A stretch of 64,000 nt of DNA, taken from NCBI RefSeq assembly GCF_036507355.1, contig NZ_AP027877.1. The stretch is one strand, 5' to 3'. The position numbers and the translations under genes were made by a program. The notes beneath the pieces are model-generated. The model was not told the DNA's origin. It saw nothing but the letters and a program-made list of their open reading frames with translations, and made no database searches. Below, one piece after another: positions 4,153 through 46,896 of this stretch. Each line of letters opens with the position of its first letter. Positions within the stretch are counted from its first letter, which is position 1. Source of the stretch: Escherichia coli. Its GTDB lineage: Bacteria; Pseudomonadota; Gammaproteobacteria; Enterobacterales; Enterobacteriaceae.

Positions 4153-5295
4153 ATGGATTTTAATTTAAATGATGAGCAGGAACTGTTTGTCGCCGGTATC
4201 CGCGAACTGATGGCCAGCGAAAACTGGGAGGCCTATTTTGCCGAGTGCGACCGTGACAGCGTCTACCCGGAACGTTTTGTCAAAGCACTGGCGGATATGG
4301 GTATCGACAGTCTGCTGATCCCTGAAGAGCACGGTGGTCTGGACGCGGGGTTTGTTACTCTCGCCGCCGTGTGGATGGAGCTGGGACGTCTGGGGGCACC
4401 AACCTATGTACTGTACCAGTTGCCGGGCGGATTCAACACCTTCCTGCGCGAAGGCACACAAGAGCAGATCGACAAGATTATGGCTTTCCGCGGCACCGGT
4501 AAGCAGATGTGGAACTCAGCGATTACCGAACCGGGCGCGGGCTCCGACGTGGGTAGCCTGAAAACGACTTATACCCGTAGAAATGGTAAGATTTATCTTA
4601 ATGGTAGTAAGTGTTTTATTACCAGCAGCGCCTACACCCCGTACATCGTGGTGATGGCGCGCGACGGGGCTTCTCCGGACAAACCTGTCTACACCGAATG
4701 GTTTGTTGATATGAGCAAACCGGGCATCAAAGTGACCAAACTTGAAAAGCTCGGTCTGCGTATGGATAGCTGCTGTGAAATCACCTTTGACGACGTGGAA
4801 CTGGACGAGAAAGACATGTTCGGTCGGGAAGGTAACGGCTTTAACCGCGTCAAAGAAGAGTTCGACCATGAACGTTTCCTGGTAGCCCTGACCAACTACG
4901 GTACGGCGATGTGCGCCTTTGAAGATGCGGCGCGCTACGCCAACCAGCGCGTGCAGTTTGGCGAGGCTATTGGTCGTTTCCAGTTGATTCAGGAAAAATT
5001 CGCCCACATGGCGATCAAATTAAACTCCATGAAAAACATGCTGTATGAAGCAGCGTGGAAAGCAGACAACGGCACCATCACCTCTGGCGATGCAGCGATG
5101 TGCAAATACTTCTGCGCCAATGCGGCATTTGAAGTTGTGGATAGCGCAATGCAGGTGCTGGGCGGTGTCGGGATTGCGGGCAACCACCGCATCAGCCGCT
5201 TCTGGCGTGACCTGCGTGTAGACCGCGTCTCCGGGGGATCTGACGAAATGCAGATTCTGACGCTGGGTCGCGCGGTGCTGAAGCAATACCGCTAA
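4153..5295 (+). CDS. caiA: crotonobetainyl-CoA reductase (acyl-CoA dehydrogenase family)
   Basis: 380-aa ORF with acyl-CoA dehydrogenase features. Confidence 0.95.
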
Positions 5296-40773: not shown

Positions 40774-41550
40774 ATGCTGATTCTTATTTCACCTGCGAAA
40801 ACGCTTGATTACCAAAGCCCGTTGACCACCACGCGATATACACTGCCGGAGCTGTTAGACAATTCCCAGCAGTTGATCCATGAAGCGCGGAAACTGACGC
40901 CTCCGCAGATTAGCACGCTGATGCGCATCAGCGACAAACTGGCGGGTATCAACGCCGCTCGCTTTCATGACTGGCAGCCAGATTTCACGCCGGAGAATGC
41001 CCGCCAGGCTATTTTGGCGTTTAAAGGTGATGTCTACACCGGCTTGCAGGCCGAAACTTTCAGCGAAGACGATTTCGATTTTGCCCAACAGCATTTGCGA
41101 ATGCTTTCCGGCTTGTATGGCGTACTGCGCCCGCTCGATTTAATGCAGCCTTATCGTCTGGAAATGGGGATCCGTCTTGAGAATGCCCGAGGGAAAGATC
41201 TGTATCAATTCTGGGGAGATATCATCACCAACAAGCTGAACGAGGCGCTCGCAGCACAAGGCGATAATGTGGTGATTAATCTGGCGTCAGATGAGTATTT
41301 TAAATCGGTGAAGCCGAAGAAATTGAATGCCGAGATTATCAAGCCGGTGTTCCTCGATGAGAAGAACGGCAAATTTAAGATAATCAGCTTCTACGCTAAG
41401 AAAGCACGCGGTCTGATGAGTCGTTTCATTATTGAAAATCGGCTGACCAAACCAGAGCAACTGACTGGTTTTAATAGCGAAGGTTACTTCTTTGATGAAG
41501 CTTCCTCCAGCAATGGCGAACTGGTGTTTAAACGCTACGAGCAGCGTTAA
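40774..41550 (+). CDS. yaaA: peroxide stress resistance protein (UPF0246 family)
   Basis: 258-aa ORF. Confidence 0.9.
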
Positions 41551-41563
41551 GTTTGCAGTCAAT

Positions 41564-41669
41564 GCCGGATGCGGCGTGAACGCCTTATCCGGCCTACAAA
41601 AGCATGCAGATTCAATATATTGCAGAATTCACGTAGGCCTGATAAGACGCGCCAGCGTCGCATCAGGCG
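41564..41669. repeat. REP/BIME palindromic units
   Basis: gccggatgcggcgtgaacgccttatccggcctac ... gtaggcctgataagacgcgccagcgtcgcatcaggc. Confidence 0.7.
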
Positions 41670-41702
41670 CTGAATGCCGGATTGTTACCCGGCATTTGTC
41701 AT

Positions 41703-41999
41703 TTAGCGGTGATGTTTGCCTGGACCATGACCGCCGTGATGATCATGAGGAGCTTTCTTATGGTGGCGCGGCGGTGGCGGCGGTCCGTGTGGGTGCCAGC
41801 GATTGCCTCGCCATTCATAATGTTGTTTCCACCAGCCGTGGTCGCGCCAGTGACCTCCATCCCAGTAATAGCCACGATTATCACGATCGCCTATCTGTAA
41901 TTTTACTGACGGGACTAACGTAATTTCCGCAGCCTGTGCTGCCATGGGAGCGACCAGAACCAGGGAAAGTGCGAGTACGATAGATTGCATCTTTTTCAC
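41703..41999 (-). CDS. yaaX: small secreted His/Pro/Trp-rich protein of unknown function
   Basis: 98-aa ORF with signal peptide and a low-complexity [28 protein letters not shown] tail. Confidence 0.8.
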
Positions 42000-42212
42000 A
42001 GGTTACTCCTTTTATCATTGCCCGTTATGGGTCGATATCCGGAGATTACGCGATGAGAACGACGGTTGTTATTCTCCGCAATCCTAATCTCTAAGTTACC
42101 GCATTTATTGAGAATTTCTCCTTTTTCCCTGTCGTTTTTCTCCATAATTTCTTCATAAAAAAGCCGGGCTGCATAAAAGCAAACCCGGCCTGATTGAGAT
42201 AATGAATAGATT

Positions 42213-43499
42213 TTACTGATGATTCATCATCAATTTACGCAACGCAGCAAAATCGGCGGGCAGATTATGTGAAAGCAAGGGTAAATCAGCACGTTCTGCC
42301 AGCTCTTTTGGCAGATCCAACGTTTCACCGAGAATCGCTTCCACGCTCTCTTTAAATTTCGCCGGATGCGCGGTGCCGAGGAACAAGCCATATTCGCCTG
42401 GATTCAACTGGTCACGCAGCGCACGATACGCTACGGCAGCGTGCGGCTCCGAGGTGTAGCCCAGTTCTTTTAACTCACGCATTGTCTGTTGCGTGGTTTC
42501 ATCATCCACGGCTGCATAACCCAGCTCTTTCAGTTGCCAGATTTTGCGGCGGAACAACTCTTCCACACGCGGCCAGTTGTTCGGCTGACTCACGTCCATC
42601 GCGTTGGATAACGTCGCCTGAGTCGCTTTGGGTGACCACTGACCGTCGTGCAGGAAACGTGGCACGGTATCGTTCACGTTGGTCGCAGCAATAAAACGTT
42701 TCACCGGCAGACCGAGTGACTTCGCCAGCAGACCCGCCGTCAAATCGCCGAAGTTTCCGCTTGGCACCGAGACAACCAGCTGGTTGCGCGCTTCCTGCGG
42801 CAGCTGCGCAACTGCTTCAAAGTAGTAGCAAATCTGCGCCAGCAAACGGCTGATGTTAATCGAGTTAGCCGAGTTTAACCCCAGCGCCACTTTCAGTTCT
42901 TCATCATCAAACGCCTGCTTCACCAGCGCCTGACAGGCATCGAAATCGCCGTCGATGGCAACAGTTTCGATATTGCCGCCCAACGTACAGAACAGTTTTT
43001 CTTGCAGTGGACTGATTTTGCCTCGTGGATAGAGGATAACCACTTTCACATTCGGCAAACCGTAGAAAGCATGAGCCACTGCCGCTCCGGTATCACCGGA
43101 GGTCGCGGTCAGAATGGTCACTGGCTTATCGCCCGCAATATGGGTCAGCATTTGTGCCATAAAGCGACCGCCGAAATCTTTAAATGCCAGCGTTGGCCCG
43201 TGGAACAATTCCAGACAACCGACATCGCTTTCAACATTGGCGACCGGAGCCGGGAAGGCAAACGCCGCGCGCACGCGCTCTTCCAGGATTTCCTGCGGGA
43301 TTTCATCACCAATAAACGCCGAGAGGATCTTCGCACTGCGGGTGACAAAATCCAGCTTCAGCATCTCATCAATTTCAGTCAGGCTGAATTCCGGCAGGTC
43401 ATGCGGAAAAAACAGCCCCTGATTTTTGCCCAACCCCTGGGTTACGGCTTGCGCAAAGCTGACCTGCTCGTTGTGATCTTTCAGATTGTAGAGTTTCAT
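42213..43499 (-). CDS. thrC: threonine synthase
   Basis: 428-aa ORF. Confidence 0.97.
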   Translation of the reverse strand: MKLYNLKDHNEQVSFAQAVTQGLGKNQGLFFPHDLPEFSLTEIDEMLKLDFVTRSAKILSAFIGDEIPQEILEERVRAAFAFPAPVANVESDVGCLELFHGPTLAFKDFGGRFMAQMLTHIAGDKPVTILTATSGDTGAAVAHAFYGLPNVKVVILYPRGKISPLQEKLFCTLGGNIETVAIDGDFDACQALVKQAFDDEELKVALGLNSANSINISRLLAQICYYFEAVAQLPQEARNQLVVSVPSGNFGDLTAGLLAKSLGLPVKRFIAATNVNDTVPRFLHDGQWSPKATQATLSNAMDVSQPNNWPRVEELFRRKIWQLKELGYAAVDDETTQQTMRELKELGYTSEPHAAVAYRALRDQLNPGEYGLFLGTAHPAKFKESVEAILGETLDLPKELAERADLPLLSHNLPADFAALRKLMMNHQ

Positions 43500-44432
43500 T
43501 TAGTTTTCCAGTACTCGTGCGCCCGCCGTATCCAGCCGGCAAATATGAACAAAACCTTCCTGATTTTGCAGGTAGTTCTTACCCAACCAGTCGGCAACGC
43601 GCTGGGCGGTATCCGGCTTGTCACATAGAGCGAACAAGGTCGGGCCGGAGCCGGAGATACCGCTCGCTACCGCGCCGATTTCCGCGACCGCCTGCCGCGC
43701 CTGCCGGAAGCCAGGCAGTAACCGTTCACGGTAGGGTTCAGCGATAACATCTTTCATCAGCTTCGCGGCAAGCTCAGGCTGACGGGAATAGCAGGCGTGA
43801 ATGAAGCCAGCCAGATGTCGCCCGTGCGCAATGCAATCCTGGCGACGATACTGCGCCGGTAAAATAGCCCGGGCTTCTGCCGTCGAGACTTTAATTCCCG
43901 GATACGCCAGCACCCACAGCCACTCATCAAACCCTGGCACTTGCTGGCTGATGATGTCGTTTTCTTCGATCATCAACTGCATACCACCAAGAAAACACGG
44001 TGCCACGTTGTCGTAATGAATGCTGCCGGAGATACGTCCTTCCAGCTCGCCCATCAAAGCCAGCAAACGGGTGTCATTAAGTGGCTTGCCGCAGTGTTCA
44101 TTCATCGCCATCAGCGCCGCGACCACCGAACAGGCGCTGGAGCCTAAGCCCGAGCCGATCGGCATATTCTTTTCCAGAGTCATCGCCACTGGAATTTGCT
44201 TGCCCAGCTCCAGGCAAAAACGCTCCCAGCACTGATAAACGATATTTTCCCGTGGTTCTGACGGCAGCTTATCGGCAAAGCGTCCGAGGTTGTTGAGACT
44301 GAATGTCTCTGCCGCCTCAACCGTGACTACATCTCCGAGCAATGCACCATCAACGGGTGTCACCGCCGCCCCGAGCACATCAAACCCGACGCTCATATTG
44401 GCACTGGAAGCCGGGGCATAAACTTTAACCAT
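43500..44432 (-). CDS. thrB: homoserine kinase
   Basis: 310-aa ORF, GHMP kinase motif [10 protein letters not shown]. Confidence 0.97.
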
Positions 44433-44433
44433 G

Positions 44434-46896
44434 TCAGACTCCTAACTTCCATGAGAGGGTACGTAGCAGATCGGCAAAGACACCAGCAGCGGTAACGTCA
44501 TTGCCCGCACCATATCCGCGCAGCACCAACGGCAGCGGCTGATAATAATGGCTATAGAAGGCCAGGGCGTTTTCGCCATTTTTCACTTTGAACAGCGGAT
44601 CATTACCATCCACTTCGGCAATCTTCACGCGGCAGACGCCATCTTCATCAATATTGCCAACATAGCGCAAAACTTTTCCTTCATCACGGGCCTTCGCCAC
44701 GCGCGCGGCAAAGAGATCGTCGAGCTGTGACAGATTCGCCATAAAAGCTGCAACATCACCCTCGGCGTTAAACTCTGCGGGCAGCACAGGTTCAATTTCA
44801 ATATCCGCCAGCTCCAGTTCACGTCCCGTTTCACGAGCGAGAATCAATAGTTTACGCGCCACATCCATACCAGAAAGATCATCTCGCGGATCCGGTTCGG
44901 TATAACCCATTTCCCGCGCCAGCGTGGTCGCCTCGGAGAAACTCATGCCTTCGTCTAACTTGCCGAAGATATAAGAAAGCGAACCTGAAAGAATGCCGGA
45001 GAACTTCATCAATTCATCACCTGCATTGAGCAGATTTTGCAGGTTCTCAATAACCGGTAATCCAGCCCCAACGTTGGTGTCATAGAGGAATTTACGCCGC
45101 GATTTTTCCGCCGCATGACGCAACAGATGGTAGTAATCCATCGACGAGGTGTTGGCCTTTTTGTTCGGCGTGACAACGTGGAAACCTTCGCGCAGGAAGT
45201 CGGCATATTGATCCGCCACTGCCTGGCTGGAGGTGCAGTCAACAATGACCGGGTTCAGCAGATGATATTCTTTCACGAGGCGAATTAAGCGCCCGAGATT
45301 AAACGGCTCTTTGGCTTGTGCAAGTTCTTCCTGCCAGTTTTCCAGATTAAGGCCATGCACACTAGTGAGCAGAGCCTTCGAGTTGGCAACGCCGCAGACA
45401 CGTAAGTCGATATGTTTATTCTTCAGCCAGCTTTGCTGACGCTTCAGTTGCTCCAGCAGCGCACCGCCAACGCCACCGACGCCAATCACAAACACTTCGA
45501 TAACCTGATCGGTATTGAACAGCATCTGATGAGTAACGCGCACGCCAGTGGTCGCATCATCGTTATTTACCACGACAGAGATTGAGCGTTCAGAAGATCC
45601 CTGAGCAATGGCGACAATGTTGATATTGGCGCGGGCCAGCGCGGCAAAGAATTTCGCCGAGATCCCACGCAAGGTGCGCATACCATCACCTACCACCGAG
45701 ATAATGGCCAGCCGTTCCGTCACCGCCAGCGGCTCCAGTAAGCCTTCTTTCAGTTCCAGGTAGAACTCTTCCTGCATTGCCCGTTCAGCCCGCACACAGT
45801 CGCTTTGCGGAACGCAGAAACTGATACTGTATTCGGAAGATGATTGCGTAATCAGCACCACGGAAATACGGGCGCGTGACATCGCGGCAAAGACGCGCGC
45901 CGCCATGCCGACCATTCCTTTCATCCCCGGGCCGGAAACGCTGAACATTGCCATGTTATTCAGATTGGAAATGCCCTTGACCGGTAATTCGTCTTCATCA
46001 CGACTGGCACCAATGAGCGTACCTGGTGCTTGAGGATTTCCGGTATTTTTAATCAGGCAAGGGATCTGGAACTGGGCGATGGGGGTAATGGTGCGGGGGT
46101 GAAGAACTTTAGCGCCGAAGTAGGAAAGCTCCATCGCTTCCTGGTAGGACATCGACTTCAACAACCTCGCATCGGGCACCTGACGCGGGTCGCAGGTATA
46201 GACCCCGTCAACGTCCGTCCAAATCTCGCAACAATCGGCGCGTAAACAGGCAGCCAGCACCGCCGCGGAGTAGTCGGAACCGTTGCGTCCAAGTACCACC
46301 AGTTCGCCTTTTTCATTACCGGCGGTGAAGCCTGCCATCAGCACCATGTGATCAGCCGGAATACGACTTGCCGCAATACGGCGGGTGGACTCAGCAATAT
46401 CGACGGTAGATTCGAGGTAATGCCCCACTGCCAGTAGTTTTTCGACCGGATCGATAACGGTAACGTTGTGACCACGCGCTTCTAACACGCCGGCCATAAT
46501 GGCGATCGACATTTTCTCGCCACGGCAAATCAGCGCAGCGTTAATGCTATCCGGGCACTGCCCTAACAAACTAATGCCATGCAGGACATGTTTTATTTGG
46601 GCAAATTCCTGGTCGACGAAAGTTTTCAATTGCGCCAGCGGGAATCCCGGCTGGGCGGCGGCGAGTCCCGTCAAAAGTTCGGCAAAAATACGTTCGGCAT
46701 CGCTGATATTGGGTAAAGCATCCTGGCCGCTAATGGTTTTTTCAATCATCGCCACCAGGTGGTTGGTGATTTTGGCGGGGGCAGAGAGGACGGTGGCCAC
46801 CTGCCCCTGCCTGGCATTGCTTTCCAGAATATCGGCAACCCGCAGAAAACGTTCTGCATTTGCCACTGATGTACCGCCGAACTTCAACACTCGCAT
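44434..46896 (-). CDS. thrA: bifunctional aspartokinase I / homoserine dehydrogenase I
   Basis: 820-aa [20 protein letters not shown]... Confidence 0.97.

Follow-up and report, generated by a model that had tools for sequence, protein, structure and literature searches.

YpeC, the paralog of YaaX, belongs like YaaX to the DUF2502 family. Both proteins have the same signal peptide and core and a His-rich C-terminal tail, and both are expressed in an Rcs-dependent manner. Unlike the YaaX tail, the tail of YpeC is Gly/Arg/His-rich, carries extra Y/W repeats, ends in GHGHRH and is devoid of a polyproline run. The two genes also differ in their surroundings, since ypeC lies beside mntH-nupC and has a promoter with a MarA/SoxS site; it is described as a MarA/SoxS target (PMC5684230). 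In E. coli, ypeC is convergent with the adjoining mntH, coding for an Mn/Fe transporter, and nupC. A distant two-repeat homolog (P0184) has Nramp-nupC neighbours like those of ypeC, an adjacency that is old and does not represent an operon.

Disordered metal-binding segments rich in His and Asp are found in the ZnuA loop, in the tails of SlyD and HypB and in Hpn-like proteins. The tails of YaaX and its orthologs resemble these segments in composition (about 30% His and about 20% Asp in most orthologs) and in predicted disorder. However, the comparators sit on proteins with proven metal roles and metal-responsive regulation, whereas YaaX has neither, and the E. coli YaaX tail has additionally lost nearly all of its Asp. 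ZraP, Spy and CpxP are, like YaaX, small periplasmic proteins induced by envelope stress, but they are helical and belong to a different family, while the YaaX core is modelled mostly as short strands and the protein matches none of their models beyond the signal peptide. Finally, the Ala/Lys-rich protein Asr shares with YaaX its small size, Sec export, basic charge, low complexity, induction by stress and disorder. Asr acts via its net charge, and the likeness is one of mode of action only: there is no sequence similarity, and Asr responds to acid and lacks a folded core rich in Trp, whereas YaaX is Rcs/RpoS-induced and His/Pro/Gly-rich.

The yaaX locus and its product

The window that we analyzed, a stretch of 64,000 nucleotides of E. 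coli DNA, holds the start-of-map region of the E. coli chromosome in reverse orientation. The yaaX gene and the parts of its product are located in it as follows.

41703..41999, minus strand: yaaX coding sequence, 98 codons plus stop, from the GTG start (41997-41999) to the TAA stop (41703-41705); 100% identity to annotated yaaX; Pfam DUF2502
41931..41999, minus strand: signal peptide, residues 1-23, predicted cleavage between AQA and AE; read from the sequence, with the n/h/c regions and A-x-A kept in the alignment
41796..41930, minus strand: DUF2502 core, residues 24-68 (45 aa), rich in Trp, Arg, Asp and Gly; 79% mean identity over 76 orthologs, pLDDT 86-94
41706..41795, minus strand: tail rich in His, Pro, Gly and Lys and modelled as disordered, residues 69-98; His at 10 of 30 positions, net charge (K+R-D-E) +4, pLDDT about 48-64
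41769..41783, minus strand: PPPPP run, residues 73-77 (CCG CCG CCA CCG CCG), a ribosome-pausing polyproline motif

The sequence-only reading had named this gene YaaX. This was confirmed with a 751-bp query comprising the ORF and its flanks, which was 100% identical to many complete E. coli genomes; the matching loci carry the annotation "yaaX: DUF2502 domain-containing protein". The ORF alone was present in 5424 of the 5426 complete E. coli genomes, and 571 of these 5424 align over less than 80% of its length. The only significant Pfam family was DUF2502 (PF10697, residues 25-73, E 8.4e-14), which scored 52 bits against a gathering threshold of 27, in agreement with the earlier statement that YaaX belongs to a family with no known function. 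NCBIfam returned only sub-threshold matches confined to the signal peptide, including the Spy model (E 0.2), and the PADLOC anti-phage defence models returned 0 families. Because it is an annotated gene and a DUF2502 member, the feature was already known: yaaX is a known gene of a known family.

Secretion had likewise been claimed. We assigned by eye a Sec-type signal consisting of a Lys-rich n-region (MKK), a hydrophobic core and an AXA site, which supports this claim. Cys is absent throughout YaaX, as is a lipobox, and without any Cys the protein would be soluble and periplasmic rather than a lipoprotein. YaaX is predicted to be a small soluble Sec-exported periplasmic protein of 75 aa once matured. 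This mature chain (H 13, G 11, P 9, R 7, W 6) has a pI of about 10, and the counts for W, H, G and R agree with the richness in these four residues reported before.

The surroundings of yaaX contain the following features.

44434-46896, minus strand: thrA
43500-44432, minus strand: thrB
42213-43499, minus strand: thrC, upstream neighbour of yaaX
42156..42191, minus strand: thr operon terminator, a hairpin plus U-run between thrC and yaaX; -20.6 kcal/mol, z -3.96; hairpin and T-run kept in most aligned genera
41673..41696, no strand assigned: GC-rich hairpin directly after the yaaX stop, followed on the plus strand by TTTGTCATTT
41529..41694, no strand assigned: REP element pair (BIME) between convergent yaaX and yaaA; naRNA4-like and ES036 matches, fold of -65 kcal/mol
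40774-41550, convergent with yaaX: yaaA, with yaaJ beyond

In the ORF map of the window, yaaX occupies the position of its orthologous group, with thrC on the same strand on one side and the convergent yaaA on the other. One or both of these genes adjoin 75/75 YaaX-type loci (both in nearly all) but 0/5 ypeC-type loci. Since the hairpin at 41673..41696 is followed by TTTGTCATTT on the plus strand, it probably serves the convergent yaaA too. The sequence of the REP pair occurs in tens of copies per genome, and because of it the 751-bp query met about 39 places per genome. Within the pair, Rfam gave two naRNA4-like matches below threshold (41529-41594 and 41636-41694) and an ES036/CssrF match just over the gathering score (41598-41640).

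Upstream, a 49-aa ORF (41996-42145, minus strand) ends by a GTGA overlap on the yaaX start, and its segment EIxNKCxxLEIRIAENN looks kept across genera. We considered this ORF as a coupled leader peptide and rejected it. Its conservation coincides with the block of promoter DNA and the rest contains indels, so that it is probably non-coding.

A conserved core and a variable His-rich tail

Alignments were made from 22 orthologs first and then from 76 syntenic orthologs taken from species-representative genomes. They show that YaaX splits into a core constrained in sequence and a tail constrained in composition. The 22-ortholog alignment contained 23 invariant columns, nearly all of them within the core, with G37, D38, D40, G43, W46, D47, G48, W51, R52 and W57 among the invariant residues. 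Over the 76 orthologs, the core, at the 79% mean identity to the window protein given above, was free of indels, whereas the tail reached a mean identity of about 40% and varied in length from 23 to 51 aa. The DUF2502 motif IGDRDxxGxYWDGxxWR, found in YaaX after the signal peptide, is also kept in distant members.

The composition of the tail was far more stable. When the 76 tails were pooled, they consisted of 28.9% His, 20.3% Asp, 13.3% Arg, 10.3% Pro and 9.2% Gly, while aliphatic residues, Phe and Cys together made up 1.5%. His represented 11-42% of each of the 76 tails. Many of them end in PGPDxKHH, and a short C-terminal motif, PGPDxKHH or GPGKHHR, recurs. Sequence and length thus drift while the His/Asp composition is kept, which points to selection on composition of the kind typical of cation-binding disordered segments. 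We found no tandem DNA repeat under the tail.

The His-rich tail described by the sequence-only reading is present in the translation, which ends in the string quoted there and has 10 His in its last 30 residues. The background frequency of His was 2.1% (binomial P 3e-10), as determined on 44 long ORFs of the same window, in which any stretch of 30 aa contained at most 4 His. Within the family, the E. coli tail stands out by its near lack of Asp, by its net charge of +4, which is the maximum (family mean -1.8), and by the PPPPP run. Outside Escherichia, this run was met in no more than a few very close relatives, and it is therefore not a family trait. A review lists a "proline-related pause in yaaX" detected by nascent-chain profiling and Ribo-seq (PMC13410324), indicating that the yaaX ORF is translated. 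The five consecutive Pro codons of yaaX exceed the minimum of three for a polyproline stalling motif, a class of motifs that depends on EF-P.

The tail also varies within the species. E. coli has at least two tail alleles, the second of which reads PPPSPRHNKHNDHRGDHRPGLDKHHR and has no PPPPP run. Public protein sets furthermore contain many YaaX variants whose C terminus is switched to a hydrophobic alternative frame (41699-41884 of the window, minus strand), often at or near the CCG-rich polyproline tract; one cluster of such variants has 141 members. These frame-switched C termini probably stem from errors in sequencing or assembly.

Only 119 clusters were recovered when 1.84 billion representative proteins were searched with a profile, and the family is therefore narrow. 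All 80 loci retained from the scan of species-representative genomes came from Enterobacteriaceae, as did every syntenic yaaX locus recovered. Distant members consist of one or two units IGDRDxRGYYWDGxxWRDxxWW followed by a low-complexity region rich in His, Asp, Gly and Pro, although a few end in CPPGQAKKGNC instead of a His/Asp-rich tail. The YaaX core contains one full and one degenerate copy of RGxYWDGxxWRDxxWW. In proteins with two units, the second is the one to which the sequence HYEWRGNRW of YaaX aligns, so that YaaX would correspond to about one and a half units. The neighbourhoods of distant homologs revealed no common functional partner (mntH-nupC; ihfA-btuC-arnBCA; HSP20/response-regulator), and because these genes are monocistronic in varied settings, they give no operon-level clue. 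A Pfam search of the 76 aligned relatives gave no domain besides DUF2502 and no known metal-binding domain.

Two AlphaFold runs were performed, one on the full-length protein with 22 sequences and one on the mature chain with 76. In both runs, the 10-residue blocks of the core reached pLDDT values of 86-94; the model shows short strands, a helix at residues 54-60 and a hairpin at residues 61-70. The tail stayed at about 48-64, as expected for disorder. Comparison of the core model with the PDB returned no match, but as the model is small and a prediction only, "no known fold" is a weak statement. Neither models nor solved structures of ZraP/Spy/CpxP, CusF, ZinT, RcnB and similar families matched YaaX significantly.

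The promoter region and expression of yaaX

A simple promoter and terminator scan gave nothing on the yaaX strand, and the promoter model therefore rests on phylogenetic footprinting, for which the thrC-yaaX spacers of 31 taxa were aligned. From thrC to yaaX, the spacer consists of the thr terminator, conserved blocks, a variable stretch of ~18 nt, TA..CT, a hairpin and the Shine-Dalgarno sequence. In this alignment, the strongest conserved block was TTAGAGATTAGGATTGCGGAGAATAACAAC, and TA..CT was invariant.

42073..42086, minus strand: most conserved upstream block, TAGGATTGCGGAGA; its left half TAGGA fits the RcsB half-site TN(G/A)GA, its right half fails TC(T/C)NA
42082-42086, minus strand: putative RcsB half-site TAGGA, its 14-bp position centred near -44
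42067..42072, minus strand: putative -35-like ATAACA (weak), 18 nt upstream of the -10-like hexamer
42043..42048, minus strand: putative -10-like TAATCT, of the RpoS-favoured TAnnCT form
42013..42037, minus strand: CCC-loop-GGG hairpin in the presumed 5' UTR, between the presumed -10 and the Shine-Dalgarno sequence; stem invariant and loop variable in 30 genera
42006..42011, minus strand: Shine-Dalgarno AAGGAG, 7 nt before GTG; kept in 30 genera

We infer from these elements a candidate yaaX promoter in which TAATCT would be the -10, ATAACA a weak -35 and TAGGA a half-site for RcsB. The consensus of the RcsB box is TN(G/A)GAN4TC(T/C)NA (PMC7913699). No canonical box with at most one mismatch was found in 42000-42212, and none with at most two in the intergenic region. 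As the full box is absent, control by Rcs could be indirect or dependent on a partner. The sequence TTAGGATT is presumably the left, RcsB-contacting end of a GAD box, which would fit RcsB acting with a partner.

The arrangement TNRGA-N33-TAnnnT was present in 73/76 yaaX-type and 5/6 ypeC-type upstream regions, and shuffling the E. coli spacer produced it in about 5% of cases. All 73 yaaX orthologs that fit it have TAnnCT. The ypeC promoters, which are otherwise unalignable with those of yaaX, harbor TAAGA or TAGGA exactly 38 nt before the -10-like hexamer TAATAT. Finding the half-site at the same distance in the promoters of the paralog lends independent support to the yaaX promoter model.

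Some further observations concern this region. The CCC/GGG hairpin (42013-42037) might be a stabilising stem at the 5' terminus or a binding site. Pairing of CUCC with GGAG, which would make the conserved element an anti-Shine-Dalgarno, was rejected, as the conserved bases are TA..CT and not CTCC. The 12-nt sequence GGAGAATAACAA of the yaaX -35 block (42064-42075, minus strand) is identical to the spacer between Shine-Dalgarno and start codon of E. coli ypeC (L092 2489-2500), which could be due to chance or be the trace of an ancient duplication. Perfect matches to the RcsB box consensus occur elsewhere in the window at 4587-4600, 28349-28362 and 40855-40868, one of them inside yaaA; since the window has 40 RcsB box matches where 59 are expected by chance, these three are probably meaningless.

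Published data document the expression of both paralogs. Induction of RcsB increased yaaX 1.9-fold (PMC2731931), colicin M led to a log2 change of 4.1, with yaaX placed among the Rcs genes (PMC3599342), and a LolCDE inhibitor raised it 8-12-fold, under the label "RpoS stress induced" (PMC5105897). Its expression follows damage to peptidoglycan, lipoproteins and the outer membrane alongside capsule genes (PMC3599342, PMC5105897, PMC2731931), and spy is co-induced with it both by colicin M (PMC3599342) and upon RcsB induction (PMC2731931). Similarly, ypeC was down 23.7-fold in an rcsB-disrupted O157 strain (PMC5343319) and, in published data, up 42-60-fold on Lol inhibition. For the Serratia homolog, activation of Rcs by mutation raised the promoter several orders of magnitude, and rcsB was required for this rise (PMC8470065). 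According to these transcriptomes, yaaX and ypeC belong to the Rcs/RpoS envelope-stress response and not to a metal regulon. In the literature that we searched, yaaX had no regulatory link to Zur, ZntR, CueR, NikR, RcnR or ZraR.

Two data sets co-list yaaX or a DUF2502 gene with zraP, which encodes a zinc-linked chaperone. In cusS (silver-adapted) mutants, yaaX appears together with zraP, and the lists also contain thrL, thrA, thrB and thrC (PMC10920338). As yaaX directly follows the thr terminator and shares its strand, this signal may plausibly be confounded by read-through. In published data on cold soil, a DUF2502 gene rises with zraP.

Overall, what our in silico analysis newly proposes is the core/tail split over 76 orthologs, the reading of the core as 1.5 repeats, its absent PDB match and the shared promoter layout of yaaX and ypeC.

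Possible roles of YaaX

We tentatively propose, at a probability of roughly 35%, that YaaX is an Rcs/RpoS-induced periplasmic protein whose core docks on the envelope while its His(/Asp) tail binds or buffers divalent metal ions and protons. Transcription would probably start from the RpoS-type promoter (TAATCT), helped by RcsB at the TAGGA half-site near -44, and YaaX would be exported upon envelope damage. The folded aromatic core would then dock onto an envelope component, a step proposed purely by inference, and the flexible His/Asp tail may bind or buffer divalent transition-metal ions and protons in the periplasm, with low affinity but high capacity.

The idea that the tail binds metal had been raised by the sequence-only reading, and it remains plausible judging from the residues involved. 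With ~30% His, such a tail is almost certain to bind Ni, Zn or Cu in vitro, its role in the cell being a separate question. The fact that distant family members likewise end in His/Asp/Gly-rich tails fits cation binding. On the other hand, the conserved folded part of the protein is the Trp-rich core and not the tail, which speaks against a metal role or at least limits the case for it. Furthermore, the E. coli tail, with almost no Asp, is the most cationic of the family, and a polycation fits it as well as a metal site does. The proposed metal/proton tail and the four alternatives below are not mutually exclusive.

It is possible, though unlikely, that YaaX is an Asr-like, charge-regulated disordered chaperone of the periplasm, in which the pH-dependent charge of the His tail would prevent the aggregation of envelope proteins under stress and metal binding would be incidental. 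YaaX is small, exported, largely disordered, basic and stress-induced, and the charge computed for it is about +6 at pH 7 but about +15 at pH 5.5. Asr itself is described as an intrinsically disordered periplasmic chaperone/aggregase acting via net charge in the part of PMC10746267 that cites Ren et al. 2022. However, YaaX is unrelated in sequence to Asr, Spy, CpxP and ZraP, and most ortholog tails are near-neutral or acidic at pH 7. Additionally, acid induction of yaaX was not found in the literature searched, in which the text of an acid Ribo-seq supplement has no yaaX row.

We consider it rather unlikely that the function resides in the Trp/Arg core, which would bind LPS core, peptidoglycan, colanic acid or phospholipid head groups as an anionic or glycan constituent of the envelope and thereby shield or stiffen sites of damage, the tail only adding charge. 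The core is indeed the conserved part and contains 6 Trp and 3 Tyr in 45 residues, along with Arg and Asp. Distant members carry its unit more than once, which resembles many cell-wall-binding repeats, and the expression of yaaX, which tracks envelope damage together with the capsule genes, would suit such a role. Nevertheless, YaaX bears no structural or sequence likeness to known carbohydrate- or lipid-binding modules, and the maintenance of His at 29% in the tail is left unexplained.

That the tail is a largely neutral low-complexity product of slippage and drift, with a core that functions alone and His residues without specific role, appears very unlikely. Its variable length (23-51 aa), its identity of about 40%, the two tail alleles within E. 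coli and the frequent frameshifted tails in public data would all be consistent with neutrality. This is hard to reconcile with a composition so tightly held, with 11-42% His in 76/76 tails and 1.5% aliphatic residues, with the recurring C-terminal motif and with the lack of a tandem DNA repeat beneath the tail.

Last, the PPPPP run might mainly pause translation late in a very short ORF, giving the exposed signal peptide time for Sec, so that the tail would serve expression and not function. The reported proline pause, the location of PPPPP 22-26 codons ahead of the stop in an ORF of 98 codons and the corresponding Pro-rich segments of Citrobacter, Kluyvera and Pseudocitrobacter could suggest this. 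It is scarcely credible, however, given that PP is missing from this position in most genera (Enterobacter, Leclercia, Buttiauxella and others), that one E. coli allele reads PPPSP and that the richness in His would not be explained.

A bolder version of our proposal, which we regard as distinctly unlikely, is that the DUF2502 core represents an unseen small Trp-rich repeat fold recognising a specific envelope polymer, that the His/Asp tail is a metal/proton switch and that YaaX and YpeC form a dedicated pair of Rcs effectors sensing or repairing damage to the outer envelope.

On the E. coli K-12 map, yaaX comes as the fifth gene, and essentially no E. coli genome is without it. The Rcs response, an envelope-stress response that affects antibiotic tolerance and capsule formation, consistently induces yaaX and ypeC, which are among its unexplained members. 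If YaaX were assigned a defined role, be it in metal/proton buffering, as a chaperone or in binding to the envelope, this would close a small gap in the Rcs response and give the DUF2502 family a function, an incremental gain and not a conceptual change.
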